From positions 1-60,271 of the IMG/VR virus record IMGVR_UViG_3300008261_000124: a stretch of 60,271 nt of DNA. One strand, written 5' to 3'. The first letter of the stretch is position 1, and each line of letters opens with the position of its first letter. Positions 4,331-56,690 of this stretch are shown here, piece after piece. The DNA comes from a virus. Its lineage: Duplodnaviria; Caudoviricetes. The translations under genes were made by a program, and so were the position numbers. The notes beneath the pieces were generated by a model, which worked only from the letters and a program-made list of their open reading frames with translations, was not told the DNA's origin and did no database searches.

Positions 4331-4331
4331 T

Positions 4332-4637: not shown

Positions 4638-4640
4638 AAT

Positions 4641-9492: not shown

Positions 9493-9500
9493 CAGTAACC

Positions 9501-9530: not shown

Positions 9531-9555
9531 ATTTATAAACTTAACACCCTTAATT

Positions 9556-11590: not shown

Positions 11591-11591
11591 T

Positions 11592-11801: not shown

Positions 11802-11820
11802 CAATTAAAACTTAGAAATC

Positions 11821-12354: not shown

Positions 12355-12584
12355 CAACAATACATGAGCTACAACAAATACTATGGGTTACAACTCCACA
12401 TGGAGATGGTATAGCATTATTTATAATGGATTATGGTATGCAAAACAACACAGTATGGGTTGTAGCTCTTGAAAATGATGGTTCTATAAAACATTATGAT
12501 AGTAGTCAAATAAAACTTTGTTATAATCACACAATTAATTTTAATATAAATGGGAAAAATGAAAGATTTAACAATAAAATTTAA
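12351..12584 (+). CDS. hypothetical protein
   Basis: ORF track; WVTTPHGDG..DYG. Confidence 0.7.
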   Translation: MTTIHELQQILWVTTPHGDGIALFIMDYGMQNNTVWVVALENDGSIKHYDSSQIKLCYNHTINFNINGKNERFNNKI

Positions 12585-34446: not shown

Positions 34447-34451
34447 CTAAT

Positions 34452-34486
34452 AATAGGCTACCTCAAAAGGGTAGCCTATTTTTTTT
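34452..34486. terminator. terminator at the convergence of + and - gene blocks
   Basis: AATAGGCTACC/GGTAGCCTATT plus T tract. Confidence 0.8.
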
Positions 34487-37400
34487 ATTGTCTACTAAAT
34501 GTTTCAAAAGATTGTAAACCTTTAACAGGATCTACTTGACTTCCAGAGAAACCTAACATTGTTCCTAAATGGTTCCATATTTTAGCTTCTCCTTCTTTTT
34601 GCCACTCATAAGGACCTGTATCTTTTTTGTAAAATAAATCTTCATTTTCACCAGGCATAGCATGTAGGGCAATATCAGTTAATATTTTAGAATAAGATGT
34701 AATAGTTGGACCAAAGGCAAGTGATGTTGAACTTGTTAAATCAAGATAGTTATTCAAACCTACTCCTGGTAGTGGTATAAAACTTTGGTTTTCAGCTTGT
34801 GTTTTTAGCATTAGAGTAAGAGCATGGTTTGATAACCACCCTGTTAATTCAAAATCATCTTCCCCTAATGCACCAGATTTAGCTCTTAATTTTTCAAATC
34901 TATCTTCATCATCATCATCATAACCAAACAATAGAGAAGCTACCATAGATACTATTAATATTTGTGCAGCATCCATAAGCATTCTAGCCATTGCTCTTTT
35001 TTCAGATTTTTGAAGATATTTTATATGTTTACCTAATGTAGCTATTGTTTTTGCTATAGCAATTGTAGCTTCTACATAATATCCTGCTCTTATAGTACCT
35101 AATGCAAAGTTTGCACGGTCTTTACCAAATCTGTTCATAAACATACTTGTAAAGTATCTTCTCATGAAAGCAAATAACCTATAAGCAAAAAAAGCTTGAG
35201 CTTGAGGTTGTTCAAATTTAGCAAAAGCACCATTGAGATCTTTAAACTTCTCATGTACAGCATTTTGCATTTTTACAAACTCTTTACCTAATACAGCTTT
35301 TTCTTGACCGTTTTCATCTACTTCATAAGTGATTCCATAAGTAGCATCTACACCTTCTTTTAGAACCATCTTACCAGACTTATCTAATTCAAAAGCATCT
35401 GCATAAGCTATACTAGTTTCTACACCATTTACAATTCTTGGAATTTGTTTATGATACATCATAGAATAGAATAGCTGTAAACCACCTTCCATCTCCATGA
35501 ATTTTCTAGGGCTATACACAAAACTTAAACTAGCTAGATCTTTAGCAAAAGTTCTTGATGCATCTTTACCCAAACTTTCATCTGCTTTACCTTGTAATGG
35601 ATCCATAAGCATTATGAGTTGAGTATCTAATGTATTATAGTTACCACCCCATATTCTAGTAGTCCATTCATTCATTGCTGTCTTACTTCTTATTTTACCT
35701 TTACCCATAGAGACAAAGTCAAAATATTCACCAGCTGTTGCTTCAACATTTAACTGCCAAAGAATACCCCAGTAGTTTTTTACAGCAGATGGTAAGTTTA
35801 ATGCAAAGTAATTAATAGATGCTCCTTTTGTAATACCAGCAGTTACTTTATTAATCCAATCAAGATGTTTTTCATCAAAGACCTTACCTTTAAATTCTCG
35901 GTTATAAAGAGCTTTAAAACCAGCAACTCTATTACTTGTACCTTTATTACCAAACAAAGCTTTTACACTATCTCTCATAGTACCTTGTTTGTTTCTAATT
36001 TTATCAAGTTCTCTTGCTGCTTCATCTAAATTTTCTAGTGTATTCATCATGGCCTGGGCAACTGGAGATATTTCATTAAATACTCTTTGTTTTTCAGCCT
36101 GAAGCATATACAAATTAAAAGATGTTATAAGATCATAAGACACTTCTTCAATAGGAATATTAGACAAACCTCTCATAGGAATTTTATCTACAACAGGATC
36201 TAATAAAGCATTTTTAGCCATTGCTAGTTTTTCATAATCTTCTTCAAACTGAACATTGCCTAATTCATCTTCAACATCAATTTCTTCCCTAGATTCTATA
36301 TTAGCTTCTTCTTTAGACTTACCACTAAGAGTAGCAGCCATACCTCTACCCACACTTTTTATTCTATCAACCCATCTTTTTAAAGGTCTACCTGTTCTTA
36401 ATCTTTCAAGATTATCTTTAATAGGAAATCTTGGAATATCTAAATATAATTTTTGAGATTTATCAAGACCTATTTGATTATCAACATGATATTCTGTAAA
36501 GGCTTTTAGTAAAGCAGCTTTTTTAGAATCTTTGATAATTTCATAATAAGCATGATTTATAAATGGAGAATCTTGAGGTGCTCCCTGTTCTTTACTTAAA
36601 GGAAGATATTCACCCCGGTTATTAACAAACTGAGCTTTTTCTTCTTTAGTCATGTTAGGCTTGATGGTTTTAAATTCATCTTTTATTTTGAAAAAGAAAA
36701 ATCTAGAACTAGGAATACCATTTATTTCATAGGTTTGTCCTTCAAACTTAACTTTAGTTTTTTCTATATAAGGAACATCAGGATTTTTTTCAATAGGAAT
36801 AACAACACTCCAAGCATTTAGTCTTTCATATTTGTATTTCTTTGTACCATCTGAAGTCATGTAATATCTTTTTACATGATTTTCATTAAACCATTTAGCA
36901 AATGATGGTTTTTTAAGTAAAGTACCTTCTAATAATTTAATATCACTAAGAAGTGAATCAGCCTCATCTAATTTTCTAGGTTTAGCATTAATAGCAATTA
37001 GATTTTGGTTTAATTCATCCATGTAATACTCAGTAGGCTCTTTAAACTGCAATTCAGCAAGTTCTTTTAAAACTTCTTTTATTCTAAGTTTAGTAGCTGT
37101 ACTAAGATTAATCTGATCATTTTGAGATTTAAACTGAATATCATTAATTTTTTCTTGAATATTCTTAAGCTTTTCTAAAATTTTAGCTCTATTGGCCATT
37201 TTAGAAGGATCAGTCTGACCATAAGAATCTTTATATCCAGATAAAATAGCTGTTCTTTCTTTATAAAGTGCATCTACTTTATATTCATCAGGTAAATCTT
37301 TAGATAATTCAGCTAAAGTATCATATAATTCAGCTTGTCTATCATAATAAGCTTGTGTATATTTTACTCTACTGTTTTGTTTTAACCATTTATATTGTAA

Positions 37401-40073
37401 ATCTTTAAACTCATCAGTTAAAGTACCATCAGGATTATATTTTGCTATGTTAGAATATCTAGGATCTGTAGCTAACAAATTAGAAAAAGCTTCAAATTCT
37501 CTTTGAAACTGACCTTTTTTAGGAATAGCATCATAATACTTACCCATTCTTTTTCTATGAGCAGTTAAATCCCTTGCTATTTTTTGGTCTTTTTGATCTT
37601 TAAGATTTCCATTCTCATCAAAAATAGAGTAAAGTCTTTCTCTCTGTTTTAATAAATTATCTAGTATACTATTGTTTTCAAATGTATCTAGTTCATTAGG
37701 ATTATCAGCTCTAAACTTTTTTATCTCAAGATTTATTTCTTCTAACTTCATGAAAGCATCATAGTTCTCATTTTCAAGAACTTTTCTGTCTTCATAATAT
37801 GACTTAACATATTCTCTATTAAAGTATTTATTTAAGAATTCTTCTTTTTTCTTATAAGCTTCTTTTAACTTTTCTGGATCATTAGCCTTTTTAGCATCTT
37901 CAATATCTTGCTCTAGCATGGCAACTTCATACCTACCACTAGTTGTTGGTGCCATTAAAGATAATACAGCTTGTTTAGTTAGTCTACCGTTTTCATCTCT
38001 TCCGGCTTTTGTATCTGTTATAATATATTCACCAAACTCTTTTCTAGGATCATTCCCTGTAATACCTAAAGACTCCATAAGAGGCTGAATAGTCTCAGAA
38101 AATTTTCTAGATCTTAAGAAAGCATTAGCTGTAATATCTGATGTATGTTTCTTTAAGAATAAAGCAAAAGTTGAAAGAATAGGATCAGGATTTGTAGTAT
38201 AACTCTCAAACATTGTACTCCAAAAATTAGAGTCACCAAGTTCACCAGTATACAATTTTTTTATTTTATCCTCATCAAATGTATATTTCTTCTTTTTTTC
38301 TTTTAGTTCTTTTATAAGCTTATCTCTATAAGAATCAGCAGGCATTTCTTCTAGCCTTTTGATTTCTTCATCAATATTCTTTGTTATATTTTCTGAAAAA
38401 TAGTTAAGTAAATCTGTAGTAGATTTTACAGCACCATCTTCTTGTATAGTAACAAAAGTTTCTTTACCTTTTTTAACAGAAGCATCTAATGTAGCAACAA
38501 ATCTAAAAACATAACTATCTTTGGGAATACCAGCTTCAATCATTGCTCTTTCAGTTTGATCAATGAAATCACCCCATTGTTTTAATAAATCATGAGCATA
38601 AGCTACATCTTTTAGTTTGTCTACAGGTTTAGCATTACTTGCTGCAATGGTTTCTAAATACTTATTAATTTCAGTAAGAGTTTTATCTAATGTAAATAGA
38701 GAATTTATTAATGCTTTAGTTCTAAAAGAAAGAGTAAGATCAGCATAGTTTTTTACTTTAGAAGGATCTACATCTTTTAATCTCTCAGCAATATCTCTTA
38801 AATATCCACCTGCTTCTTCATCAGCAATAACCTTTTTTATATCCCAGTAAGGTTTTGCTTTTGTAAGTCTTAATTGTCTATCATTGAACATTATAAAATT
38901 ATCAATAACACCCATAAGTTTACTTTCAGCTTCTGCAGTTTTTATAGCATCAGTAATTTCTTTTGCAGCTTTTTCTAATTCATTATTATAAGAATTTATA
39001 GTTTCTGCATTAACTTCTTCATTTTCAAGTTTAAAGTTTTCATTCTCTACCATTTTAACAAAAGATGAAACACTATCATTAGGAGTAAGCTTTTCTACTT
39101 TTACAGTTCCAAATTGTTTTCTTATTCTTTGTTTGATGTGATACATCAGATTATTCTTTATAAAAGCATCAAATGCTTCACTCATAAGACCTGCATTAAC
39201 ATTAGTACCAGCATTTTTTACTGATGCATAATATTTAAGAGATTCAGCTAAAACTAATTCTTTATATAAATCAGAATCTTTATTTATTATTGTTGGATAT
39301 TTATCATTTATAATCTCTTGAATATCAGCTGCTTGTGGAGTTTTAAGAAATCTTTCATAAATAGCATTAAAAGTATCTTTAGCATTTAGTCTTAAAGTAT
39401 GAATTAAAGGTAAAGCAATATCAGCAAAGTTGCTATTCAATGATATTTTATCCTCAACTAAATGTATTTTGTTATTGATGATAAATACAGATTGTCCTTG
39501 ATAAGGAGTAGCAGTTTTTGTTAGAATATTATTAGCTTCTTGGGTTGTTACAATTATAAAATCCCTACCTAAATTTTCACCAAACTTGTAGAGAAATTCA
39601 TCTTTTCTCATCTTGTTTTGTAAATCAATAGCTGTTATTGGTTCTACAAATTCTTCTGGTACTTCATTAGCCAATTCTTCAAGAGTTTGGAATCTTTTAG
39701 CAGCAATTTCTTTTTCTTCCTCAGTTCTTTTTATAATTTCTCCTTGAAACAATTTATCTAAATAATCATTATTTGCAAGCCATTGTTTATAAACATCTTC
39801 ATTAAACATACCTTCTTGAGCATCATTTATCATGTCAAGAAGAGTAGTGCTATAATCATACTTTTGTCTTTTAACTAATGGAACATATTTATTAAGTAAA
39901 GCAGCTGCTTTTATAGGTTCAGCTTCAGTAAATAGAAAAAATGCCCCGGCAACAGGCTCAGGTAAAACATCTTCTCTAGATGACATCCATACTTTCCAAG
40001 TATTATTTTCACCTATAGTATTTTCTAGAGCTAACCAGTCTGGGGCAGTTTTAAGAGGACAAGATCCTTTCAT
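34485..40073 (-). CDS. giant virion/ejection protein (1862 aa)
   Basis: In the virion RNAP gene block; helical; C-terminal hydrophobic segment; single Cys at residue 5. Confidence 0.75.
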   Translation of the reverse strand: MKGSCPLKTAPDWLALENTIGENNTWKVWMSSREDVLPEPVAGAFFLFTEAEPIKAAALLNKYVPLVKRQKYDYSTTLLDMINDAQEGMFNEDVYKQWLANNDYLDKLFQGEIIKRTEEEKEIAAKRFQTLEELANEVPEEFVEPITAIDLQNKMRKDEFLYKFGENLGRDFIIVTTQEANNILTKTATPYQGQSVFIINNKIHLVEDKISLNSNFADIALPLIHTLRLNAKDTFNAIYERFLKTPQAADIQEIINDKYPTIINKDSDLYKELVLAESLKYYASVKNAGTNVNAGLMSEAFDAFIKNNLMYHIKQRIRKQFGTVKVEKLTPNDSVSSFVKMVENENFKLENEEVNAETINSYNNELEKAAKEITDAIKTAEAESKLMGVIDNFIMFNDRQLRLTKAKPYWDIKKVIADEEAGGYLRDIAERLKDVDPSKVKNYADLTLSFRTKALINSLFTLDKTLTEINKYLETIAASNAKPVDKLKDVAYAHDLLKQWGDFIDQTERAMIEAGIPKDSYVFRFVATLDASVKKGKETFVTIQEDGAVKSTTDLLNYFSENITKNIDEEIKRLEEMPADSYRDKLIKELKEKKKKYTFDEDKIKKLYTGELGDSNFWSTMFESYTTNPDPILSTFALFLKKHTSDITANAFLRSRKFSETIQPLMESLGITGNDPRKEFGEYIITDTKAGRDENGRLTKQAVLSLMAPTTSGRYEVAMLEQDIEDAKKANDPEKLKEAYKKKEEFLNKYFNREYVKSYYEDRKVLENENYDAFMKLEEINLEIKKFRADNPNELDTFENNSILDNLLKQRERLYSIFDENGNLKDQKDQKIARDLTAHRKRMGKYYDAIPKKGQFQREFEAFSNLLATDPRYSNIAKYNPDGTLTDEFKDLQYKWLKQNSRVKYTQAYYDRQAELYDTLAELSKDLPDEYKVDALYKERTAILSGYKDSYGQTDPSKMANRAKILEKLKNIQEKINDIQFKSQNDQINLSTATKLRIKEVLKELAELQFKEPTEYYMDELNQNLIAINAKPRKLDEADSLLSDIKLLEGTLLKKPSFAKWFNENHVKRYYMTSDGTKKYKYERLNAWSVVIPIEKNPDVPYIEKTKVKFEGQTYEINGIPSSRFFFFKIKDEFKTIKPNMTKEEKAQFVNNRGEYLPLSKEQGAPQDSPFINHAYYEIIKDSKKAALLKAFTEYHVDNQIGLDKSQKLYLDIPRFPIKDNLERLRTGRPLKRWVDRIKSVGRGMAATLSGKSKEEANIESREEIDVEDELGNVQFEEDYEKLAMAKNALLDPVVDKIPMRGLSNIPIEEVSYDLITSFNLYMLQAEKQRVFNEISPVAQAMMNTLENLDEAARELDKIRNKQGTMRDSVKALFGNKGTSNRVAGFKALYNREFKGKVFDEKHLDWINKVTAGITKGASINYFALNLPSAVKNYWGILWQLNVEATAGEYFDFVSMGKGKIRSKTAMNEWTTRIWGGNYNTLDTQLIMLMDPLQGKADESLGKDASRTFAKDLASLSFVYSPRKFMEMEGGLQLFYSMMYHKQIPRIVNGVETSIAYADAFELDKSGKMVLKEGVDATYGITYEVDENGQEKAVLGKEFVKMQNAVHEKFKDLNGAFAKFEQPQAQAFFAYRLFAFMRRYFTSMFMNRFGKDRANFALGTIRAGYYVEATIAIAKTIATLGKHIKYLQKSEKRAMARMLMDAAQILIVSMVASLLFGYDDDDEDRFEKLRAKSGALGEDDFELTGWLSNHALTLMLKTQAENQSFIPLPGVGLNNYLDLTSSTSLAFGPTITSYSKILTDIALHAMPGENEDLFYKKDTGPYEWQKEGEAKIWNHLGTMLGFSGSQVDPVKGLQSFETFSRQ

Positions 40074-40074
40074 T

Positions 40075-40866
40075 TTAACATTCGCTTTTTTTGTTGTTAA
40101 TATCTTCTTCTGATGGTGAAATATGTTTGTTTACAATGTCATCTATAGATGGAGCTCCTGTAACACTAGGATCACTTATTCCAAAAGCATCATTAAGTTT
40201 GTTAGACAAATATATTGATAATTCTTGGTTTGTAGAGGATTCCTCTTCAGTAAAAGGAATGATGTTACCTTCTTCATCCATAGTCCAGCTACCTTCTTTA
40301 CGTCTTTCTATGTCTTCTTCTTTAGAAAGGTCTTCTGTTTCATATTCTTCTTCTGGTGTAGTAAAATCTATAGTTTTTTGAATACCTATTTGTGGTTTAC
40401 TTATCAGTAAAGATGGTGATTGTCTAGGATTAATTTCTACAATAATAACATCTTCAATTGTAGTATTTTTTAACTTAAAAATATCAGGATATTGAGTTGC
40501 AATTTCTTGCATTATTTTAAGATTAGGCTCAAAGATCTCTTTCCTATTGGCAGTTTTAACACTCATACCAACATTCCATCCTTTTACTATAAAAATTTTA
40601 TCATTAGATTTAGCAAGAACTCCCTGTAAATAATCTAGAATACCTCTTTCAGTAAGATATTGGTTGGCTTTGAGACCTCTTTGTATTTTCTGTAGTTTGT
40701 TTTTATTAATATTTAATAAAAAATTTTTGGCTTCACTTACAGTAGGGATATAATCAGAGTCTGGTTTACCCTGATTATATCTTCTTATTAAGCCTTCAGC
40801 AATAGTGCTTCCATATCTTTTTTCTAAGTTTTTATACTCCTTAGTTGATTTATTTATACAAGTCAT
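40075..40866 (-). CDS. hypothetical virion-associated protein (263 aa)
   Basis: Between giant genes; Cys only at residues 3 and 263. Confidence 0.7.
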   Translation of the reverse strand: MTCINKSTKEYKNLEKRYGSTIAEGLIRRYNQGKPDSDYIPTVSEAKNFLLNINKNKLQKIQRGLKANQYLTERGILDYLQGVLAKSNDKIFIVKGWNVGMSVKTANRKEIFEPNLKIMQEIATQYPDIFKLKNTTIEDVIIVEINPRQSPSLLISKPQIGIQKTIDFTTPEEEYETEDLSKEEDIERRKEGSWTMDEEGNIIPFTEEESSTNQELSIYLSNKLNDAFGISDPSVTGAPSIDDIVNKHISPSEEDINNKKSEC

Positions 40867-40871
40867 AGTAC

Positions 40872-43800
40872 TTATAATTTACAATTAATTGTTTGATCTA
40901 CAAATTGTTCGACTGTTAAATCAAATGGTAGTTCATTATATTTATCAAGTATGCTCTCTAAGGTACCAACTTTTTTCTTTTGTTCATCAGTTAATTTATT
41001 ATAGATAGCTGTTATTTGTTTTATAGGATCACCAGTTTGTACTATAGGTTGAGTAGTGGATTTACTATAATTCTTTCTTAGTTCAGCTAAAGCAGCTTTA
41101 TTTATTCTATCTTCTAATAATCCTTTGGTTTCTCCTTCAGCTTGTTTAATAAAGTCATGACCTAATTCATGAAGAAGAACAAAAGTAAAAAATTCATCAA
41201 ATGATGTAAACTCATTTTCAGCAAGAGGTGTAGCAGAACTTTTATCATTTAATACTGCAGATTTAGTCCAAGCTTTTTCAGCATATTTTTGTTTCAAAAG
41301 TGAAATATTTAGTAAAATAGCATTACCAATGTTTCTTGCTCCTACAGGTTTATCTCTAGTTGATTCAATTTGTTGGAACAAAAGAGGTTTTTTTCTAAAA
41401 GTTTTTTGAGCTAAAGCTTTTTCTTCAGTAAAATATGGTTTACCTAGTTGAGTAGTAGTAAGTTTAGCTTGATCAAATATAGATGATAAGAACACAATAT
41501 TTTTACCACTATCCTCTAAAGACTTGATATTAGAAATAGCAGAATCAATATCAGTTTTAGCAGCATTGATTTGCTCAAAAGACATACCTGGAAATCTATA
41601 GTTCAAATCTGATAAAGAAGAAATAATGATAGAATCTAGATTGTTGTTTTTTACATCATAGATAAAATCACTTTTCTTTTCATAATCTTTAGCTAAATCT
41701 TTAAATGTTTGAGAGTTATCATCTAAAACATAAACATTACCTTTTACATTTGTTATAAATGGTAAGTTGTTTATATTCAATGCATTAGATTGTTTAAGAT
41801 TAATAACATCTTGCATATTCATTCTCCAGTTTACACCTCTATTTATTAAAGTAGAATTTTTAGAATTATATCTAGCTTTAAAAAATTCATTAAAACCGGC
41901 TAAAAATTTATCTGCATTATCACTATCTAATAATTTTTTTAGGTTATTGACAGCAACATCCATTATTCTATTATAGTTTCCATAAGGCATGATTGACATT
42001 AAGTTAAACTCACTTGGGTTCATACCTGATTGTAAGAAAGCATATAACGGTAACTTTTCAAAAAAGCTACTTATATAAGCATTATTTTGAGGACTGTTTG
42101 CTACTTTAATAAAACTAGGATCAGCAAGTTCACTCATTTGTCTTCTATAATCTTCTCTTTTCTTTTTACCATTCTCATCCCTAATATCTGTAACATCTGA
42201 TATATCAGTAAGAGTAAAGTTTAATATACCTTTATACTTTTGTTTTACATCATTAGGTACTACACTAGCTTTAAATTTAGATATAACAGAATACTTTTTA
42301 GCAAGAGCAGGGTTATCATTAATAATATTTATAAGTTCTTGAGCCACAGTATCTTTTCCAGATCTAAATAATTTGAATGTATTATAAATATTATTTAATG
42401 CTTTATTCTTTAAAATGTTTTCATAAGCATACTTCTTTAATCCGTCTTCTGTAGAAAATGCAGGATTATTAATATTTTTTAAAGCAGCATAAGATCTTTT
42501 ATAGCTAGTAGTATTAACCACAGAATCTATTGGATACATTCTTCTTAAATATTCTCTTTCTAAGCTAAACTCAACAAACTCTTCAAATGTAGCATCTTCA
42601 AAAGCAGCTAAAGGAACAGGATATAATCCTCTTTCTATATAGTTTTTAGCATATTCTTTATTATCATAATCATTTTTAAGTTGTTCAATGTTAACTAACT
42701 GATCTACAGGAATTTGTTTATACATTGTATCACCAGATCTGTAGTTTTTAAGAGTATTGATAAATACATACTGATATAAAGAATTTAAAAATCTTATTAC
42801 ATATTTTTCTTCATCTAAACCAGTAGCTTTTTCTATACTACTAAATAGTGTTCTATTTTCTACAGCATTAGTTAAAAAGTCAATTACCTTAGGATGATTT
42901 CTAGTAGGAAACAGTCTTCCAAACAATTCAATAGTAAAATCTTGAACTTGAAATGGTTTAAGAGCACCTCCATTAACAAGATTATTTACATCTTCTTGAG
43001 AAACAGTTTTAGAATCTTTTAATCTAGCTATAGCTCTTGATTTTATCTTAGCCTCAAACATGTTTGGTGAAGTAGTTGTATCAGGATTTAAAGTCATTTT
43101 TAATAAATCATAATCCTTCATCAATTCTTCAATAAGAAGATATTGTAAAAATCCAGCTTTTTGAGATTGATCAGCAAAATTAAGTCTGCTAGAAGCTATA
43201 CTTTTTAATTCATCTAATGTAAAAGCTCCTTTATGATAAAAATTTAAAGCATATTGTAAACCGTGTACATTATCTTTATTATTAGTATATTCAGCACTTG
43301 GTACATTTATAGATCTCATCATATATTTCTTAGCTAAATTTTTAGCATTAGACCCACTTGAATCATGATCTTTACCAAATACTAATTTAGATAGTGGAGA
43401 TTTATAACTATTTTCTAAAGAAACATATTCTCTAACCATAGGATTAGAAACAAAATATGCTATGTGTTCAAAAGGCACTCCTGCATCAACTAAAAACAAA
43501 ATTTTAGGTGTAACAGTAGGATTACCTTGCAAATAAGCTACCCATTCATCTTTATCAATATCAACAAATCCATTTAACAACTGAGAAATAATTTCAGCAA
43601 CACTGTTTTCATTATTATAATCTCTATCTTTAGATAAAGAAATAGCACCATCAGAAGTTTTATTATGCTTTAACTTTAAACCAATAGGAAAATCAACAAT
43701 TTTTTCTTCAATCACATTTTTACCAGCTTTAGTCCGAGTAAGTATTTTTATTACCACAGGCATTGACTTTTTAAGCTTAGTTCCATAAATACGGAATTGG

Positions 43801-49800: not shown

Positions 49801-51467
49801 TTTCTTCCTACAGTTTTATCCATAGCAACTCTAGGCATAATTCTTTGGAAAATAAAATCATAGTAATTTCTACTATCTTCAGTTATTTCACCAGTAGGTG
49901 TAACAGTGATCCATCTTAATTTATTATCATTGTAAGGTTTTTCCATAATAGTAAGGAAATTGTTACCAAAGAAACTTTTTAGAATTTCTCTAGCTTCTTC
50001 CTTATTATTTACAATATCTAATATTTTACCATTAACACTTAATACATCTTTAGTAAGAATAAATCCAGAGTTTTCTTCTATATGTAAAAACTGTTTTATA
50101 TAATCTAGTTTATCCATAGCTGATAAAGGAATACCTAAAAGCTTTGGATCATCAACTAAAACACTTACAATATTATTTAATACATCAGAATCAGTACTAA
50201 GTTTTTCAGGATTTTTTAAAGATACTCTTGAGTCTGAATCTTCAAATTTTATAGTAGGTAATACTATACTTTTATTACCTTTTACTATTGTAGTAAATTC
50301 AATACTTGCTTTTTCTACCGGTGTAAGATTAAACTCAGAAAGATAAGCTTGTGTTGCTTTTCTTTGAGCAGGAGTCATATCATTTGTATTTTTATAATAA
50401 CCAGTGCTACCACTGTTTATATCTAAAAGTACAGGTTCAGTATTAGTTTCTTCTACTATTTGTTTTACAAAATCTTCTTTTTCTTTATATAACTTATCTA
50501 TATAAGAAACTAAATCTTTAAACTTTTCAGTTTTAACAGCTTCTTTTTCTTCAGAAGTTAAACTTGTATCACTATCTACTATATTTGTTATTTCAGTTTG
50601 TTTTTCATTAAACAATCTGTCTTTAATGGATTGTTCTTCTTCTTTAGAAGAAGCTTTCATTAAAAAATGAACTATAGTACCATTACTTGCATCACCAAGA
50701 GTACCATCTTCTTTAAAGTAAAGAAAGTTACCTTTATTATCTACAAGAGCTAATACTACAAAATTTGTAGGTTGCTCATTCAAATAAAGATTTCTTTCAA
50801 GATTAGGTAATTGATTTTCTTTTATTGCCAGCAATCTAAACCCAGTATGTCCTTCATAAGTAACTTCTGTAAAGTCTGGTTGAAAATCTTTAACAGAACC
50901 TAATAATTTATTTACTACATTATGATGTAAATTTGCTTTAGGGTTTGTTTGATCTTGAGAAGGAATACCATTTACTCTAAGTAACTGTTGACCAATAGTT
51001 TTATTTATTTCACTTGGGAATAATAATCTATCAATAAAAAGTTCTTTTGCAGATGTAGTAGTTTCTATAGGAATAACTGAATCTTTAGGTTGATTAGCAA
51101 TCTCTTCTTCTATTTGTGATATAGGAATAGATATAATTTTTAATTCTTTAGCTAAAAGATCCAACCCATTTTGACTATTTACTTTTTGAATAAGATCTTT
51201 AATACCATCTAAATCTTTCCCGTCTAAACTCATCATGTCTAGATCAGGATTTATTTTAAACAAATTAGTCATTATTTGTGGTACATGATATGCCACACCT
51301 AAAGCCTGTACTTGATCTTTATTTTTACTATAAGCAGCATCATAAATTTCTTTTATAATACCCAGATAATTAAATGGTTTTGTCTTAATACCTTCCAGCA
51401 TTAAAACATTTACATATTCTTCTAAAGCTTTTTTTAAGTCTTTTTGTTGTTCAAGATTACAAACCAT
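40872..51467 (-). CDS. virion-packaged RNA polymerase (crAss-like, double-psi beta-barrel type) with zincin-like domains
   Basis: DADGQG, RIPVQGPNS and catalytic SGTDFDVDK (44640-44654); HEAWH and HELGH motifs. Confidence 0.88.
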   Translation of the reverse strand: MVCNLEQQKDLKKALEEYVNVLMLEGIKTKPFNYLGIIKEIYDAAYSKNKDQVQALGVAYHVPQIMTNLFKINPDLDMMSLDGKDLDGIKDLIQKVNSQNGLDLLAKELKIISIPISQIEEEIANQPKDSVIPIETTTSAKELFIDRLLFPSEINKTIGQQLLRVNGIPSQDQTNPKANLHHNVVNKLLGSVKDFQPDFTEVTYEGHTGFRLLAIKENQLPNLERNLYLNEQPTNFVVLALVDNKGNFLYFKEDGTLGDASNGTIVHFLMKASSKEEEQSIKDRLFNEKQTEITNIVDSDTSLTSEEKEAVKTEKFKDLVSYIDKLYKEKEDFVKQIVEETNTEPVLLDINSGSTGYYKNTNDMTPAQRKATQAYLSEFNLTPVEKASIEFTTIVKGNKSIVLPTIKFEDSDSRVSLKNPEKLSTDSDVLNNIVSVLVDDPKLLGIPLSAMDKLDYIKQFLHIEENSGFILTKDVLSVNGKILDIVNNKEEAREILKSFFGNNFLTIMEKPYNDNKLRWITVTPTGEITEDSRNYYDFIFQRIMPRVAMDKTVGRKGRPMIVNSYLGYKRINEKKQVEQEVKETIEKVDENPDLFGGIDFDINSAAFRSKLLETIPTTAEQEERAKKFLEESPLFKAVDESGKPLITTDFSRTIVNSDAFGMFSNAAVTLFSGASYTHGYHEAWHVFSQLYLSKGDRDRLYNSVSKLDGSFEVVKGTGGQGGNNFEKVTVKFSDLNPNFPQDRLLLEEFIAEEFRLFAINNGKFKTKNAKTNILSKIFNRIWALLKQFFGSADATTVYSNPGSETVLNEMFNTLYRAKTQDQISRIAPNLKNAEFGRLNSGIIAEDGAPLFNYQEAIELSNSIDGIISLYTDRVIQEQKAKGVIANGYVITAITSPKNQDHIYNVVVKTAFQNKLKQHMAYVEKNKENKNDPFLDVYKRNIDILSRALKSEIFGDITEIIKGNAKGNSVVAFHRENSAFKDLGLVKDYDIEIDNLDSKKAEADETYSNKGPNEKKSEDIATNETLFLVKSLLKKNPDGSNIENALGFPETVDFIPTWRVLTNKLGGQTTPTGLYNKMIKARDMKIAPYFDQLLLKVGNPAEVMSTSENAANMWISLWQSLNLYNMPILATQFVEDRDENGEVSVKIKVGKTTAEYFKIKRRDWPSKFAQETSSPYIKVNTETKANELNLPAIKKAFLVETFGADGLLSYTVNSKENWIPFLNSIGLYLTNNYDINQTLQEEDVKYIAQAIGLAEYNKLNIEAPIDFLSRFHKFKSLNRFNQVVDINYNSSVGRVDAIASLEAQYSDQYTGSMVRASSDNLKATTALNSTYTKIINSINEVMFKGDMFDNTLLGDYAHLYYLNPEFNPQAKASIFLNSLFKTDGTKDQDNSIEVFDVDGSKYVTEDFESNGVPYGKMTKLDKVITDMTSMMFYGVQEGTTRAAGKKTYLGVKIKEIKTYDGKKTNHLFIDTELFLKNASGDYITQGNVNTKILQLVYPKLEAEIKRIKMVKDDPTYYKTYKGFEKADQFAMFDDVLEQDVDKEKSLKQRLTTTEFLNAVAEKGLITTLNENEVLRDELNKQVLEYFSRLKKRYEKQYVKAVKSAKLQRNGEALLPEAIKEALKERFISNKVIKKAQLDSLGESSDILLKNAFFSSYTINSWLYKAEVGTIIHTDHFQFNHAKNEGPKRIAPYQSPGTIFATGSLANNYANTYAKREYEQKLMDENKIAKKDIRKHTSIFNTAIIKESEVRSAYYEMYEDMFRKSMIRRGITDEAAIKKELYGPDGLDKNGNPTGGRMAPFAKIKDADGQGFVSFDAYRILKKLESDWSPEQEAAYQDVIKGKQVSADEIKGLFPVYKLGYAGPLAITGRYPINSIHKFSLMPLTPSMLEYGNKKAVLQDIHLKMIEQGIDYITFESGSKQSHIRSSENLNGDDIYEGNDTSRLKENFTFTVNPIFLAYLKNQTKVNSYFKGESTLASQLRKLFNVSLYSEGDPKKQIFKEKTDKVFSLIDRIVKVKKAEILRNLKFKEVIDPKTGTVKLEGDIQVMLGFIRKELEKQGYSKTEIDLIQSNEKGTVDLSSHPLAPQIEKNLVSIINNRLVRLKVNGEPLVEGSSAFFQDVKFKKPTEKDLNNYGTNGLRSYVVDPDGKVDTKGMGVAIALNEDYQKLFFTKYFTKDEKGNYIDSKEIIAVYKKNEKGDRELDFDASFNRLNEMINVNEWLNTDENRLKIRITGVRIPVQGPNSAEFAEVQRFLPPIAGPIIIIPAEIVAKSGTDFDVDKLTSYSKYISSRGTLIKDSFNTVEELDAHIEKLEESFNKARAKAIKGEIKTEVDKKNLTWTTIKDDLSDFRKAVTDVAQTKYLGKEQYNSLTQKNTRKLLENLSDKNLMDFVKNNIPEAYKIYNQKLKDFNITELNKVEETISNLYKEKNDLAKTAIELSLAKEHKRNFSKVIENDLIDAITDVLSLPDMAEVLLTPNDTHLTKYITEDAPGQKGLKSLVQELDDETDYEKSIMTGKRNAPKGISATRMLEQDFNTDKQQASIAGGQGLGIVAVGGTNSNQFRIYGTKLKKSMPVVIKILTRTKAGKNVIEEKIVDFPIGLKLKHNKTSDGAISLSKDRDYNNENSVAEIISQLLNGFVDIDKDEWVAYLQGNPTVTPKILFLVDAGVPFEHIAYFVSNPMVREYVSLENSYKSPLSKLVFGKDHDSSGSNAKNLAKKYMMRSINVPSAEYTNNKDNVHGLQYALNFYHKGAFTLDELKSIASSRLNFADQSQKAGFLQYLLIEELMKDYDLLKMTLNPDTTTSPNMFEAKIKSRAIARLKDSKTVSQEDVNNLVNGGALKPFQVQDFTIELFGRLFPTRNHPKVIDFLTNAVENRTLFSSIEKATGLDEEKYVIRFLNSLYQYVFINTLKNYRSGDTMYKQIPVDQLVNIEQLKNDYDNKEYAKNYIERGLYPVPLAAFEDATFEEFVEFSLEREYLRRMYPIDSVVNTTSYKRSYAALKNINNPAFSTEDGLKKYAYENILKNKALNNIYNTFKLFRSGKDTVAQELINIINDNPALAKKYSVISKFKASVVPNDVKQKYKGILNFTLTDISDVTDIRDENGKKKREDYRRQMSELADPSFIKVANSPQNNAYISSFFEKLPLYAFLQSGMNPSEFNLMSIMPYGNYNRIMDVAVNNLKKLLDSDNADKFLAGFNEFFKARYNSKNSTLINRGVNWRMNMQDVINLKQSNALNINNLPFITNVKGNVYVLDDNSQTFKDLAKDYEKKSDFIYDVKNNNLDSIIISSLSDLNYRFPGMSFEQINAAKTDIDSAISNIKSLEDSGKNIVFLSSIFDQAKLTTTQLGKPYFTEEKALAQKTFRKKPLLFQQIESTRDKPVGARNIGNAILLNISLLKQKYAEKAWTKSAVLNDKSSATPLAENEFTSFDEFFTFVLLHELGHDFIKQAEGETKGLLEDRINKAALAELRKNYSKSTTQPIVQTGDPIKQITAIYNKLTDEQKKKVGTLESILDKYNELPFDLTVEQFVDQTINCKL

Positions 51468-51473
51468 AATATT

Positions 51474-54400
51474 TTAACACAATTTGTTTATAAAGTTATT
51501 TTTAGCTTCTTCTTTAGTAAGCTTGTTGTTGTATACTGTTTGATTTTGAACTATTGATTTTTTATTTTCAAGTATAGTATCATTATCCTCAGTAGTTACA
51601 TTTATAGATTTAGGATCTACAACCCCTTGTATAACAGTTGATAAATCTTCAATTTTTATAGTTACATCACCTGATATCGGAGAAGATAAAGTTACAGTTT
51701 TTTTGTTGATTTTACTAATTTTATAAGGGTTTGGAGTTACTTGACCAAAAGGAGTATATAATACCTCATAGCCTCTTTCCTTAGCAATAGTTAAATTATC
51801 AACATTAATATTTTTATTTATAGATTCAAGAGTTACAGTTTCAGATTTAAACTCTTTAGAAGGTGTATTTTCTCTTACATATCCAAAATTTTGAGATTTA
51901 ATATTACCATCTTTATCAAATCTATAAATAGCTAATACTTCTCTAAGTTTACCTTCTATTTCTTTTGTGATTTTTTTAATAGCAAACTTTTCACCTACAG
52001 GTTGTACAGTAGTAGTTTTACTAAGATCATAATTAGGAATAACCCTTACTACTCTACCATCATCTAATGTTATTTGATATGATTGATCAGTATATGTTCC
52101 ATAATCTCCTATAGAAAAAGTGCCGGTTAAAGCAGAATCTCCCTGAAGTTCTGAAGATAAAGCTTTAAACTTTTCTTCAATAGACATGTCATTAAAAGCC
52201 TGAGTATCAACAGGTTGAGCAAAAGTTAATGTAGAAACAGTTACTTCAGAGGGTTCTTCTTCTATAGCAGCTTCAGTACTTGTAGAAATAGGTAGAGGAG
52301 AAGGTGTAGTTTCAATAACTTCTTTACCAATAGGTTGCAAGTAATCTTCTACTACTTTATCATAAGTAATAGTTGCATTTTTAGCATCAAAAGCATCTAC
52401 AGCTTCTAAAATATTACCATCTAAATCACCTTTAACCTCAATAGGTAACAAAGCTAATTTTTTAACCTGAATACCTAAAAGATCTTCAATCATTTTCTTG
52501 TAAATAGAAAGCTGTAATGTATAAGCTTCTTTTTTCTTAAAACTATCTTTTTCAGTTCCAAACTTTGTCCAGTCACCGGCAGTTTTAATATCATAAATTT
52601 TAAAGTTTCCATCTTTATCTATAACAAGTAAATCAAGCTCTCCGGCAACTTTTTCTTCTTTACCTTTTACATTATATCTACCAAAAGGAACAACATTCTT
52701 AGCTACAATAATCTCACCTCTTTCTTTAAGTTTTTCTCTAACCTTAGTTAAAGCATCCACTATACCACGGTAAGCAGCTTCACTCACAGACTTAGGTTTC
52801 CTAATTGGTTTACCATCAAAAAAATCTCTAGCAAGCTCATCAACTACATTACCTCTATCTTTAGCCTCACTATAGATTATATCATTTAGTGTTTTTTTGA
52901 AGTTTTCAACAGACTCATCTTTTGATACAGCATCTATTAACTTATTGATTTTATTTTGAGAAAGTCTGTCTTTGTATGTTTTTATTTTCTCTTTTTCTAA
53001 TCTATCTATGATAGAATTAATAAGATTTTTAGCATACTCTAGTTTATATTTGCTTTTTAAAGATATGTCTTTTAAAGCTTTTTCATAATACTCAACTAAT
53101 AGTTTTCCACTTGTTTCAGCATAATTAAACTCTTGAATACCATATATTTCTTTTAAAATTCTATCTTTAAGTTTGGTAGCTCTAAGATTATAATCTTCCC
53201 CAGCAACTACATAACCAGATTGATCATCTTTCTTTTTAGCATCTTTAGATATAGCTTCTAATTTTTTTAAGGCTGCTAACTGTTCCGGAGACATGGCAGC
53301 TTGAAGCTCTTTTATAGCAATAGCATTCTCAAGATTTAAAAGCATGTTTTGTTCATCTTCTGTTAAATCTTTTTTCTTAGATAAAACATCATATTCAGCT
53401 TTAAGTTCATCTAAAGTTTTATCAGCAAATACATCTACTTCTTTAACCTTTTCTTGAGTCTTAATATATTTATTTACTATTGGTCTAACAGTAGGATCAC
53501 TAGTCAACCATTCCTGAAAACTTGTTTCTGGATCAATATATCCTTCAGATTTTTTATATTCATAATCTTCTACAAGTTTATCAATAAGTTCTTGAGGATA
53601 TGTAGAAGGATCATCAGGATTAATACCTTCTTGTTTTTCTTTGGTAGCTTCAGACTTTTTAGCTTCTCTTTTAACTTGTTCTGCTTTTTCTAATAAATCA
53701 AGATGATCCTCCCAAACTTTCATTGCTACTTTATATCTAGCATCATCTGGAGAAATATCTTGTTCTTTATTTTTATCTATAAACCCTGTAATATTAGGAA
53801 TTTCTGTACCATTTACTACAGCATTTTTAATAGCTTTTAAATCTTCAGGTTTTAAAATTAATCCTGTATTTTTATAAATCTCATTTAGGATAATGTTAAG
53901 TTCTCTTCTTCCTGTAAAAACATCATTGTTATACTTTAGTACATTTTCTTTATCGCTTATAATAGTACCAAATACATTTTGAAGTCTTTTTTGAACAGAT
54001 AGGAAACCTTCTGGATTAGAAAGTACATTGATAGATTTTACTAAACTTTTACTTTCCTCACCCAAAAGCATGTGATCTAATACAAGTTGATATGCCTCAT
54101 CTATAGTACTATCAAGTACCATACTATTATTGTCACCAGCTAAATATTTTAAGATTTTATTAAAATCTTTTTTAGCTTCTTTTTTAGCTTCTTCTATAAC
54201 TTCTGAAGATTCACCAAACTTTATTTTACTAGCTGTATCATAGAATTTTTCTATTAATTCTAATCTTTCAGTTTTTTGTTTTTTAACCTTCTTTTGTTCA
54301 GGTATAGATTCATCTAATACAGCTATTTCTTTTTTAAGTGTATTTATTTCTTGAATAGTTCCTTGATTACTCATCAGACTCATAAATGTTTGAGCATCAG

Positions 54401-56690
54401 ATTTTGCTATTTTATTAGCAAGTCCTGAAAAACTCTGAGTCATCTTTTCCATTCTTTCAGACAAATTAGTCAAAGAATGTTTTGAAAATATTAAATCTTT
54501 TTTAGCCTGTTCCCATGCTTGATAAGCTATAAGATTAGCTCTAAATAAAGGATTGTTAGAATCATATTGTTTAAAGTTGAATGGGTTAGGCATTTCATTA
54601 GAAACACTTTCATAAGTATTTCTTATGCTTTCTGCTCTAGAAATTACTTTATCAATATATTTTAAAGCCTGGTTACCATCTTCAATTCCATATTCTTTAA
54701 AAGCATCTTTAGCTTCTTCTGGACTTAAGTTTTTATAGTCTTTGATTTTATTAAGAATGATATCATATTTACCTGTTCTTAAAGCTGTATGTATATGTTC
54801 AAACACAGCTTCATCTTTAATATCTCTTGCTGTTTTTGCATCACCATTTTCTAATGCTTCACTAAGGTCATCAGCCATTTTTTGCTGTTTAACAGCATTA
54901 GCAAGATCTGGAGCCAAGTATGTAACAGCATTTTTATAAAAATCATTTAAGCTATCAACTTCTGTTTTTCTTTGAGCATCTCTTGCAGCTTTTGCTTCTT
55001 TTATTTTTTCTCTATCTTTAAATGCAACAGCTTTAGAGATAGCATAAGAAGGTGCAGACATTACAGGAGATGCAAACATACTCATTGCAAAACCACTGGC
55101 AAAAGTTTCAGCTCCTTGTGCAGAAAACTGATCACTTAAACCTTTCATAAAATATCCCATGTAACCTTCATAGTCAGCTCTTGCTGGATCTTTATACATA
55201 GCGATTGCTTGTTCTGCAGAACCTTTAGAAATAGCTTCTTGTATATTTTCTTGAATACCCTCTGCAAAGTTTCCTTTTAAATAATTATAAGCATATCTAC
55301 CATATACTTTAGGATCTTTTAAAGCTTTAGCTGCTACTTTAGCTCTATTGAAAAAACCTTCTCCGGCTTCAACAAATGTCTTTTTATCAAAAAGTATATC
55401 ATCACTAAATTTAACAAGATTCTTTTTTAAAAGTTTATCTACAGGAGCAAACATACTATTGTAGAAAAATTTATTACTCCACATAATAGCTGGCATATTA
55501 TATAATGCAGTCTTATATGATTGTGTATTAGCAATATTTTCTATTTTTTGTAATTCTTCTCCAGTAGGATCAACCCCGTGTTCATCTCTATATTGTTTAA
55601 TCAAATCTTCTGTAACATCTATCTTGGTCATACCACCTTCAAGCTTTGCTTCAGATACGGCAGCTTTAGTCATCATTACATCTCTAGCAAAACCACCAAA
55701 GGTTCCTACCATTTTTGCATAGTCTGTAGCATAGTCCGTAGCTTTTAAAGCTTGCATAGTATTTTCTAATGGATTAACCATTGTACCAATACCACTTGTT
55801 ATTTTCCCAGCTCTAGTATTCCAAAATGATCTTGCATCAGATACATTGTTTATAGCTCTAAACTCATCAGTAGCTTTACCGGCAGCTTTAGCAGTATCTG
55901 TTATCTTATCACCAACTTTTAATCCTTCAGCTATTTTTTCTGCAGCTTTTCCTGTTCTTGTAAAAATAGAAGGTAATGTAACTTCAGAACTTAAACCTCC
56001 GGTAGCAACAGTAGCTGCTGTCAAGGCTAAATCCTCAGCTAACATTTCTAAACCTATACCAATACTATATCCAGAGTTAAGAAATGTATTAGTTAAAAAT
56101 CCACCAACCCCTCCTTTTGTAGAAGAACCAATCTCCATAGCCCTCTGCATTTCTCTAGCATTTTTAACATCTGGAGCTAAAGGATCTGTAAACATATCAC
56201 CCCAAGTACTAACACCAGATTTTATACCAGTCCAAACTAAAGATGGCCATTGACTAGCTGCTCTAACAAACTCATCTCCAAAAGTCATGTTATCATTATA
56301 AAGACTTTCATTATCTCTATATGGAGAAAAACCAAGATCTTTATATGGTTTAGAGTTATAATATCTTTCAAAATTAGCACCATCAAAATCTCCACTATAA
56401 CTATAAGGTCTCATTATAGAGTAGTCATTTTGTGGAGTTTTACCTAATTTTTCAACAGCAGCATCTAAGTAAGAAACATTTTCTCTACCTGGATTACTAC
56501 CTGATAAAGGGTTCCCAACTACATACTTATAAATATCACTACTTGCTGGTTTAGCAGGCATTGTTACTTTTTGAGTTTCTAAAGAACTCAAAGCATTATC
56601 TAAATAATCTACATTTTGAGTAGAAGGAGATATTGTCTCAGCTGTAGGTTGTTCTACTACCTCCTGAGATTGATTAATTTCTTCTGCCAT
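51474..56690 (-). CDS. giant virion/ejection protein with a PD-(D/E)xK nuclease-like domain (1738 aa)
   Basis: Gly/Ala-rich N-half with EGIQENIQE; RGNVVD..AGELDLLVID..IYDIKT..YTLQLSIY. Confidence 0.75.
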   Translation of the reverse strand: MAEEINQSQEVVEQPTAETISPSTQNVDYLDNALSSLETQKVTMPAKPASSDIYKYVVGNPLSGSNPGRENVSYLDAAVEKLGKTPQNDYSIMRPYSYSGDFDGANFERYYNSKPYKDLGFSPYRDNESLYNDNMTFGDEFVRAASQWPSLVWTGIKSGVSTWGDMFTDPLAPDVKNAREMQRAMEIGSSTKGGVGGFLTNTFLNSGYSIGIGLEMLAEDLALTAATVATGGLSSEVTLPSIFTRTGKAAEKIAEGLKVGDKITDTAKAAGKATDEFRAINNVSDARSFWNTRAGKITSGIGTMVNPLENTMQALKATDYATDYAKMVGTFGGFARDVMMTKAAVSEAKLEGGMTKIDVTEDLIKQYRDEHGVDPTGEELQKIENIANTQSYKTALYNMPAIMWSNKFFYNSMFAPVDKLLKKNLVKFSDDILFDKKTFVEAGEGFFNRAKVAAKALKDPKVYGRYAYNYLKGNFAEGIQENIQEAISKGSAEQAIAMYKDPARADYEGYMGYFMKGLSDQFSAQGAETFASGFAMSMFASPVMSAPSYAISKAVAFKDREKIKEAKAARDAQRKTEVDSLNDFYKNAVTYLAPDLANAVKQQKMADDLSEALENGDAKTARDIKDEAVFEHIHTALRTGKYDIILNKIKDYKNLSPEEAKDAFKEYGIEDGNQALKYIDKVISRAESIRNTYESVSNEMPNPFNFKQYDSNNPLFRANLIAYQAWEQAKKDLIFSKHSLTNLSERMEKMTQSFSGLANKIAKSDAQTFMSLMSNQGTIQEINTLKKEIAVLDESIPEQKKVKKQKTERLELIEKFYDTASKIKFGESSEVIEEAKKEAKKDFNKILKYLAGDNNSMVLDSTIDEAYQLVLDHMLLGEESKSLVKSINVLSNPEGFLSVQKRLQNVFGTIISDKENVLKYNNDVFTGRRELNIILNEIYKNTGLILKPEDLKAIKNAVVNGTEIPNITGFIDKNKEQDISPDDARYKVAMKVWEDHLDLLEKAEQVKREAKKSEATKEKQEGINPDDPSTYPQELIDKLVEDYEYKKSEGYIDPETSFQEWLTSDPTVRPIVNKYIKTQEKVKEVDVFADKTLDELKAEYDVLSKKKDLTEDEQNMLLNLENAIAIKELQAAMSPEQLAALKKLEAISKDAKKKDDQSGYVVAGEDYNLRATKLKDRILKEIYGIQEFNYAETSGKLLVEYYEKALKDISLKSKYKLEYAKNLINSIIDRLEKEKIKTYKDRLSQNKINKLIDAVSKDESVENFKKTLNDIIYSEAKDRGNVVDELARDFFDGKPIRKPKSVSEAAYRGIVDALTKVREKLKERGEIIVAKNVVPFGRYNVKGKEEKVAGELDLLVIDKDGNFKIYDIKTAGDWTKFGTEKDSFKKKEAYTLQLSIYKKMIEDLLGIQVKKLALLPIEVKGDLDGNILEAVDAFDAKNATITYDKVVEDYLQPIGKEVIETTPSPLPISTSTEAAIEEEPSEVTVSTLTFAQPVDTQAFNDMSIEEKFKALSSELQGDSALTGTFSIGDYGTYTDQSYQITLDDGRVVRVIPNYDLSKTTTVQPVGEKFAIKKITKEIEGKLREVLAIYRFDKDGNIKSQNFGYVRENTPSKEFKSETVTLESINKNINVDNLTIAKERGYEVLYTPFGQVTPNPYKISKINKKTVTLSSPISGDVTIKIEDLSTVIQGVVDPKSINVTTEDNDTILENKKSIVQNQTVYNNKLTKEEAKNNFINKLC

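Follow-up and report, generated by a model that had tools for sequence, protein, structure and literature searches.

Paired terminal cysteines in the giant cargo proteins of a crassvirus-related phage and a probable head-to-tail disulfide chain

How crAss-like phages deliver several megadaltons of cargo protein, including the RNA polymerase that starts the infection, is an open question (PMC10172136). In crAss001, gp45, gp46, gp47, gp49 and gp50 are virion cargo and must partly unfold to exit via the tail (Bayfield et al., PMC10172136), and virions also contain the three proteins of the RNA polymerase block, which some phages encode as fusions (Drobysheva et al., preprint 10.1101/2020.03.07.982082). 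The manner in which such proteins might be held together is raised by the virus record IMGVR_UViG_3300008261_000124, a stretch of 60,271 bases with a completeness rating of about 50% (hereafter the window), in which four back-to-back open reading frames (ORFs) on the minus strand, coding in order of transcription for proteins of 1738, 3531, 263 and 1862 amino acids (aa), occupy positions 34485-56690. A preliminary description of this DNA proposed that cysteine (Cys) residues at the facing ends of the four proteins join them head-to-tail. Cys counts in homologous proteins, the cargo blocks of named phages, a complex prediction and a comparison with known systems were used to assess the proposal.

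Translation of the four ORFs gives six Cys in 7,394 residues, none of them internal. The 1738-aa protein has its sole Cys as its last residue (..FINKLC), the 3531-aa protein has Cys at residues 3 and 3529 (MVC.. and ..INCKL), the 263-aa protein at residues 3 and 263 (MTC.. and ..KSEC) and the 1862-aa protein at residue 5 alone (MKGSC..), so that the outer ends of the row, namely the N-terminus of the 1738-aa protein and the C-terminus of the 1862-aa protein, are without Cys. The preliminary description was exact in each of these details, and no internal Cys had been overlooked in it. The 45 plus-strand ORFs of at least 100 aa in the same window carry Cys at 1.52% (129 of 8,500 residues), a rate that would give about 112 Cys in 7,394 residues against the six observed; a Cys occurs within the first six residues in one of the 45 and within the last six in three. 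Six uniformly placed Cys would all lie five residues or fewer from one of the eight termini with P = 2.5e-14. Chance, or a nucleotide signal at the tight junctions (a TGT near the stop or the start codon) combined with general Cys depletion, would fit the six codons, which are all TGT, and the gaps of only 1-6 nucleotides between the four genes. Such an origin is nevertheless extremely improbable in view of this P value and of the retention of the pattern in about 250 proteins at 22-55% identity, and is already refuted by phages that keep the pattern with the partner genes on opposite strands, as described below.

The 3531-aa protein had been labelled a virion RNA polymerase (RNAP), and the label holds: its DFDVD motif, invariant in 30 of 30 aligned homologues, corresponds to DFDxD, the catalytic site of crAss-like virion RNAPs (10.1101/2020.03.07.982082). 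Its overall similarity to named proteins is weak, with BLASTP E-values of 5.7e-18 against a 2967-aa protein of cr108_1 and of 1e-6 against crAss001 gp50, the latter over 51 residues around DFDxD; searches of PHROGs and Pfam returned sub-threshold rows only, and a sequence search of the PDB gave 0 matches. The 1738-aa protein matches crAss001 gp47 (BLASTP E 1.4e-21), and its nuclease-like region scores 22.1 bits with PF12705, for which the cut-off is 22. The 1862-aa protein, without any PHROG or Pfam match, is linked to crAss001 gp49 through the metagenome relative L003_1154 (E 7e-18, and E 3e-55 from L003_1154 to gp49); in a tblastn search of a phage collection, only Leptolyngbya phage Lbo-JY46 was matched. 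A model of its residues 1-500 (predicted local distance difference test, pLDDT, 85.1) found nothing in the PDB with Foldseek at E<=0.001, and the VIA wide search with the same model returned only generic helical bundles (Z up to 9.2, for residues 375-500) that are rated common. The four ORFs may accordingly be read as a cargo, or ejection-protein, block composed of a gp47/g067-like protein, the virion RNAP, a small coupler and a gp49/g065-like protein. In the known cargo blocks of the Crassvirales (g067-g066-g065 in phi14:2 and gp47-gp50-gp49 in crAss001), the proteins are homologous to those of the window, the DFDxD motif is shared, and the order and the Cys rule are the same; the window phage differs in having a fourth member, the 263-aa protein, and much larger proteins. 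Virion packaging and injection of a crAss-like polymerase are known for phi14:2 and crAss001 only (PMC10172136; 10.1101/2020.03.07.982082).

Putative metallopeptidase signatures also occur in these proteins. Besides the zincin-like HEAWH (Table 1), the polymerase has a second HExxH motif, HELGH at residues 3433-3437 (41157-41171), which falls under a sub-threshold Pfam row for the putative metallopeptidase DUF4344 (E 0.044); the zincin-like domain of phi14:2 is reportedly located in gp65 instead of in the polymerase. The consensus of the gp49-like proteins has an HExAHP motif in its N-terminal region and the 1862-aa protein of the window is without any HExxH, so that a peptidase site may have been lost in this lineage.

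The terminal Cys are conserved with their polarity in all three large families, as counted in database homologues, along the lines that the preliminary description had suggested. For the gp47-like proteins, the best 150 of 619 representatives (clustered at 50%) were counted: a Cys lies within five residues of the C-terminus in 140 and within ten in 145, none of the 150 has one at the N-terminus, internal Cys number six in 255,680 residues, and 142 of the proteins have exactly one Cys. Among 31 polymerase homologues of 3,078-4,628 residues, 30 have an N-terminal Cys at positions 3-5 and all 31 a C-terminal Cys that is 0-4 residues from the end; internal Cys amount to eight in 116,407 residues, and exactly two Cys are present in 23. 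The gp49-like family shows the reverse polarity of the gp47-like family, with an N-terminal Cys at positions 2-6 in 65 of 69 proteins, a C-terminal one in 0 of 69 and 22 internal Cys in 136,914 residues. The remaining four gp49-like proteins are shorter, begin inside the family alignment and look N-truncated.

The cargo block was read in 15 phage records, that of Anabaena phage A-4L included, and the evidence that partner ends vary together inside single genomes comes from the 14 named records outside A4 and from three metagenome loci. The order gp47-like, polymerase, gp49-like in phi14:2 equals that of the window. It also follows from the two kinds of fusion observed, since gp47-like proteins are fused to the polymerase in three phages of the Suoliviridae and the polymerase to gp49-like proteins in three of the Intestiviridae (Table 1). 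A relation between gene architecture and Cys pairs, for which the preliminary description had suggested a test at fission points, is observed: both members of a pair are lost together at the fusions, and pairs are gained where an extra protein is inserted. The fusion points are free of Cys in cr1_1 and cr118_1, as mapped by BLAST, and in cr3_1 and crAss002, as extrapolated from alignments; cr11_1 has Cys2319 at the edge of the estimated fusion junction. These blocks also bear on a different arrangement that the Cys counts of the window alone would allow, in which each two-Cys protein closes on itself, N-terminus to C-terminus, and the 1738-aa protein is linked to the 1862-aa protein. Such self-closure is very improbable, as the two-protein blocks of the Intestiviridae pair the C-terminus of the gp47-like protein with the N-terminus of the polymerase, those of the Suoliviridae pair the C-terminus of the polymerase with the N-terminus of the gp49-like protein, and the complex prediction described below docks the 1738-aa C-terminus on the polymerase N-terminus.

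The gene of the gp47-like protein lies on the strand opposite to the polymerase gene in crAss001, IAS virus, DAC15 and cr116_1, and the pairs are kept nonetheless. Therefore, a nucleotide signal at gene junctions is excluded and the rule concerns proteins rather than gene junctions. The earlier suggestion that the Cys are paired by gene adjacency thus stands as pairing in protein order, adjacency itself having proved too narrow a criterion in these four phages. The number of N-terminal Cys equals that of C-terminal Cys in 13 of the 14 records outside A4, allowing for intron-split genes and ambiguous bases. The same data may be confronted with the view that each terminal Cys acts alone, as a modification site or as a link to portal, capsid or DNA. 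A 674-aa protein with an unpaired Cys5 in Lbo-JY46, the one exception among the 14 records, would agree with this view, as does the fact that no direct cross-link has been shown in these phages. The equality of the counts, the joint disappearance of both pair members at fusions and the scarcity of Cys in the possible partners, which are mostly Cys-free (crAss001 gp46, and the gp45 and gp46 counterparts in cr108_1, IAS virus and cr116_1), nevertheless render independently acting Cys distinctly improbable. It is well supported that the terminal Cys are functional and are paired from each C-terminus to the next N-terminus in gene order.

Several of the records show peculiarities of their own at the cargo block. 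The 674-aa protein of Lbo-JY46 (MKKKC..; stretch positions 2626-4650) lies upstream of the chain and has no partner with a C-terminal Cys in the stretch read; it is either an unpaired exception or has its partner elsewhere in the genome. Two splits considered as exceptions to the rule, 2967|798 in cr108_1 and 051|049 in cr116_1, were rejected as such, both being cut exactly at DFDxD by intron-like inserts; the apparent 'terminal' Cys of cr116_1 051 is a read-through product, because the insert splits the gene. The inserts (cr108_1 stretch 21785-22076 and cr116_1 stretch 11566-12407) are non-coding, have a 14-base string in common and resemble group I introns inserted at an identical position; that of cr116_1 also holds a 215-aa ORF with six Cys. 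In IAS virus (NC_049978), runs of ambiguous bases occur at the gp055/gp056 boundary (stretch 9480-9540), and gp055 and gp056 probably make up a single polymerase gene, the product of which would have Cys5 and another Cys two residues from the end. In crAss002 (MN917146), an in-frame ATG located 32 codons downstream of the annotated gp33 start (MVLDY..) would yield a protein beginning with MSCTPSNPK (stretch 9270-9420); the homologues in cr11_1 and cr3_1 start with MSC, and the terminal-Cys rule suggests the downstream ATG as the true start. A hairpin lies inside the 170-nucleotide gap after gp32 of the same phage. Read with translation table 11, cr109_1 (NC_055892) has 70 in-frame stops in its 4328-aa protein and 33 in its 1381-aa protein, as expected for a stop-codon-recoded crassvirus, and the terminal-Cys pair is still there.

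The 263-aa protein, with a Cys at either end, is the member by which the window exceeds the three-protein blocks. It belongs to no PHROG or Pfam family, had no match in a tblastn search of the phage genome collection and no confirmed relative in three scans of viral contigs; a metagenome scan identified three loci with relatives. Cys3 is invariant in the seven aligned members, and six of the seven, counting that of the window, end in Cys, as does an N-truncated copy (L004). The N-terminal domain of about 150 aa is conserved; the C-terminal halves share no sequence relationship and differ in length, the whole proteins having 230-375 aa. In the model of the window protein (mean pLDDT 57.8), residues 1-150 are folded with pLDDT of about 75-85 and residues 153-263, below 50, form a predicted disordered acidic tail; Foldseek gave no PDB match for this model at E<=0.001. 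The neighbours of the coupler obey the rule at the three metagenome loci: upstream lies a protein that ends in ..SLNC or ..ELKCK, and downstream one of 2730 or 1154 aa, the sole Cys of which is residue 3 or 4. Comparison of the coupler profile with the N-terminus of the gp49-like proteins (probability 8%) and with the polymerase (0.1%) gave no support for a shared docking domain.

A complex of the kind suggested in the preliminary description, between a C-terminal peptide and the next N-terminal one, was predicted for the joint between the 1738-aa protein and the polymerase. The polymerase segment 1-400 and the last 160 residues of the 1738-aa protein (1579-1738) were modelled with family alignments made for this purpose by the authors, in three runs. 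The two segments are predicted to dock, with an interaction prediction score from aligned errors (ipSAE) of 0.71 (runs 0.67-0.79), a measure of the model's own confidence; none of the three controls scored above 0.00. Of 80 solved complexes, 58 attain the ipSAE mark applied, as do 2 of 110 mismatched pairs. Contact agreement between the runs is at least 66% and the pLDDT of the partners at least 65. In the predicted interface, the C-terminal helix of the 1738-aa protein packs against the first polymerase helix in antiparallel orientation (contacts 11:1736, 14:1733, 18:1730 and 21:1726, polymerase residue first). The interface contains polymerase residues 1-6 and residues 1732-1738 of the partner, so that Cys3 and Cys1738 would come to lie at one end of the two paired helices.

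A disulfide at a comparable joint has been seen by electron cryo-microscopy (cryo-EM) in cyanophage A4 (PNAS 2025), so that the mechanism has a precedent. According to the available text of that paper, the C-terminal helix of gp27 inserts into gp26 with a Cys1715-Cys5 disulfide, the two proteins form the outer ring of a pentameric DNA-binding pre-ejectosome, and a chain reaction on ejection is proposed (PMC12002296). In the record of Anabaena phage A-4L, the only Cys of gp27 (1717 aa) is Cys1715 and that of gp26 (1114 aa) is Cys5. The layout agrees with that of the window: of two consecutive ejection proteins, the first has its lone Cys at the C-terminus and the second bears one near residue 5, and the N-terminal part of the second accommodates the first protein's C-terminal helix, in the window by prediction. 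A4 differs in that it has a single joint, that no RNA polymerase is among the joined proteins and that its genome is that of a T7-like podophage of 42 kb; the window has three joints and a dedicated double-Cys coupler. No BLASTP match at E<0.01 was obtained between the A4 proteins and the families of the window, and none of three family hidden Markov models matched A4 gp25-gp29 at E<=10. As the A4 proteins are not detectably related to these families, the pattern would be either very old or convergent.

The A4 structure also helps to judge what the Cys pairs may do chemically. The ends might dock non-covalently, as the prediction would support, with the two Cys bridging a metal (Zn or Fe) in place of a disulfide; the pairing rule fits a two-ligand bridge equally well, and the preliminary description had allowed for it. 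However, three or four ligands are the norm for a metal site. Near the ends, only the Cys and L15 of the polymerase are invariant or nearly so, no conserved His, Cys, Asp or Glu surrounds the Cys, and the one solved analogue, that of A4, is a disulfide (PMC12002296). A metal bridge is thus held to be improbable, and by analogy with A4 the bond of the joint would be a disulfide. A further alternative differs from a cargo chain in the inferred purpose only: the clasp would be real and would merely stabilise an ordered cargo core on the portal, with no role in threading or ordering. The position of gp27-gp26 in the A4 pre-ejectosome accords with this. It leaves unexplained, however, why the Cys of all three families lie within about five residues of the chain ends and why the joint is replaced by a peptide fusion in the same order, and the A4 authors themselves envisage a chain reaction; a purely structural role is therefore considered rather unlikely.

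A head-to-tail disulfide chain 1738 - 3531 - 263 - 1862 is probably the best explanation of these data. Each C-terminal helix would dock on the N-terminal helical segment of the next protein, and the one Cys per facing end would lock the joint in the virion by an intermolecular disulfide, making the linear chain a covalent equivalent of the fusion proteins of other lineages. The other Cys may have been purged because off-pathway cross-links, whether inside the packed capsid or later in the oxidising periplasm, are thereby avoided. Such a chain might fix the stoichiometry of the cargo or its single-file order of ejection, and reduction in the host cytoplasm would take it apart. In the fused 'polyprotein' forms of crAss-like phages, the same three modules are covalently joined in the same N-to-C order; there the link is a peptide bond, for which proteolytic cleavage is expected (10.1101/2020.03.07.982082), whereas in the window the genes are separate and a reversible disulfide is proposed. 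The Schitoviridae likewise eject giant proteins, including a virion RNAP, in which Cys is suppressed far below background. Their ejection proteins (N4 gp50; DEV gp71, gp72 and gp73) are near Cys-free, which is ascribed to passage through the oxidising periplasm; they differ in being reported without Cys (0.00075% in gp71 homologues) and with no terminal Cys pairs described in the text available (PMC11445570). A functional parallel is offered by a different class of molecule. AB-type toxins consist of two chains held by one interchain disulfide while they cross a membrane unfolded, and are split by cytosolic reduction; they are unrelated proteins, are not joined head-to-tail and are not virion cargo.

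Several observations weigh against a disulfide chain. A disulfide that joins cargo proteins has yet to be seen in a crAss-like phage: the virions of crAss001 do have disulfides, in tail and portal-vertex proteins, and its cryo-EM structure left gp47, gp49 and gp50 unresolved (PMC10172136). Assembly takes place in a reducing cytoplasm and the gut phages live without oxygen, because of which it is in doubt when, or whether, oxidation occurs. The docking prediction covers one of the three joints and gives no Cys-Cys distance. In the absence of detectable sequence similarity, A4 offers an analogy of mechanism, homology not being demonstrated. The C-terminal Cys is missing in five of the 150 gp47-like representatives, the coupler homologue P0002 has its second Cys at residue 224 of 290 and none at the end, and the C-terminal Cys of crAss001 gp50 is eight residues from the end, with Cys1334 internal. 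Extra internal Cys occur in gut phages (ten in IAS gp056, seven in IAS gp057 and ten in cr116_1 051), and the Cys5 of the Lbo-JY46 674-aa protein is unpaired. The claim of the preliminary description that the cargo is joined head-to-tail is consequently retained in part: the pairing of the ends in protein order stands, on conservation, fusions, the predicted docking of one joint and the A4 precedent, and the covalent bond stays a probable reading.

A wider reading is advanced tentatively, as possible and short of probable. Not only in the Crassvirales but also in at least two phage lineages unrelated to them, represented by Lightbulbvirus phi17:2 and Leptolyngbya phage Lbo-JY46, the giant cargo proteins might form one N-to-C thread held by terminal disulfides, here of 7,394 residues. 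Such a thread would exit the capsid as one unfolded polymer with its members in gene order, remain joined while in the periplasm and be divided by cytoplasmic reduction into active parts that include the RNA polymerase. Small double-Cys proteins would then be modular couplers, and peptide fusion and disulfide joint would be interchangeable in evolution.

The preliminary description knew of no earlier account of such a chain, which is correct in one respect and not in another. A disulfide between consecutive ejection proteins is already known for one pair in one cyanophage, A4, where the available text treats it as a structural detail of that pair and contains neither 'cysteine' nor 'crAss' (PMC12002296); this was also the only paper found in which 'pre-ejectosome' occurs with 'disulfide'. 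In the literature searched, which extended to neither the supplements nor the final Nature version of Drobysheva et al., no terminal Cys or disulfide-linked cargo was found described in crAss-like phages. Nor was any account found there of a Crassvirales-wide rule, of its occurrence at the virion RNA polymerase, of the exchange of Cys pairs for peptide fusions or of double-Cys couplers. In the available text of PMC10172136 and 10.1101/2020.03.07.982082, 'cysteine' is absent and 'disulfide' is used only of tail and portal-vertex proteins. The window adds to the A4 pair a chain of four members with a 263-aa coupler.

The surroundings of the four genes are summarised with the other features in Table 1. 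The ORF directly upstream of the chain, which belongs to the Cys-suppressed block, has no PHROG or Pfam match. Directly past the stop codon of the 1862-aa gene, a GC-rich inverted repeat at 34440-34484 is followed by a T-rich run on the minus strand; it is terminator-like and would close the cargo operon where the plus-strand genes meet it.

Table 1. Features of the cargo block in the window, by position and strand, and Cys residues of the corresponding proteins in named phages
Feature	Position	Strand	Remark
574-aa ORF	56696..58420	(-)	Cys-free, no terminal Cys; directly upstream of the chain
1738-aa protein, first chain member	51474..56690	(-)	related to crAss001 gp47 and phi14:2 g067
PD-(D/E)XK nuclease-like region, residues 1248-1419 of the 1738-aa protein	52434..52949	(-)	PHROG 298, E 1.6e-8; Pfam PF12705
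C-terminal segment, residues 1695-1738 of the 1738-aa protein	51477..51608	(-)	predicted to dock on the polymerase
TGT codon of Cys1738	51477..51479	(-)	column invariant across 51 aligned homologues
3531-aa virion RNA polymerase	40872..51467	(-)	Cys at residues 3 and 3529 only
N-terminal segment, residues 1-106 of the polymerase	51150..51467	(-)	predicted receiver of the C-terminal helix of the preceding protein
Codon of polymerase Cys3	51459-51461	(-)	C3 invariant in 30/30 aligned homologues
HEAWH zincin-like motif, residues 681-685	49413..49427	(-)	H681, E682 and H685 invariant in 30 homologues
DFDVD catalytic motif, residues 2272-2276	44640..44654	(-)	D2272, D2274 and D2276 invariant in 30/30 homologues
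TGT codon of Cys3529, two residues from the C-terminus	40881..40883	(-)	nearly invariant in aligned homologues
263-aa coupler	40075..40866	(-)	Cys3 at 40858-40860, Cys263 at 40078-40080
1862-aa protein, last chain member	34485..40073	(-)	related to crAss001 gp49 and phi14:2 g065; Cys5 at 40059-40061
phi14:2	g067: 1797 (last); g066: 3, 2179; g065: 3		no other Cys
crAss001	gp47: 2339 of 2341; gp50: 5, 1334, 2404 of 2412; gp49: 5		
DAC15			scheme of phi14:2 and crAss001, with a few internal Cys
IAS virus			same pairing scheme with internal Cys, allowing for ambiguous bases at the gp055/gp056 junction
cr116_1			same pairing scheme with internal Cys
Suoliviridae cr1_1, cr118_1, cr109_1	C-terminal Cys of the fusion; next protein: 3-5		gp47-like protein and polymerase fused; this pair left
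Intestiviridae crAss002, cr11_1, cr3_1	C-terminal Cys of the gp47-like protein; MSC start		polymerase and gp49-like protein fused; this pair left
Cellulophaga phage phi17:2 (Lightbulbvirus)	1957 aa: last residue; 517 aa: 4, 516; 1914 aa: 3		517-aa protein is a double-Cys coupler
Leptolyngbya phage Lbo-JY46	1552 aa: last residue; 2748 aa: 4		

The rule of one Cys at each facing end has practical uses: it suggests which start codon of crAss002 gp33 is the likely one, exposes apparently split genes as interrupted by introns and predicts ejected proteins in uncultured phages. With it, the single disulfide known from A4 would become one case of a general principle common to unrelated protein families. 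For the cultured phages phi14:2, crAss001 and DAC15, it leads to a simple hypothesis, namely that the cargo may be a covalent chain, the order of which is written in the genome.

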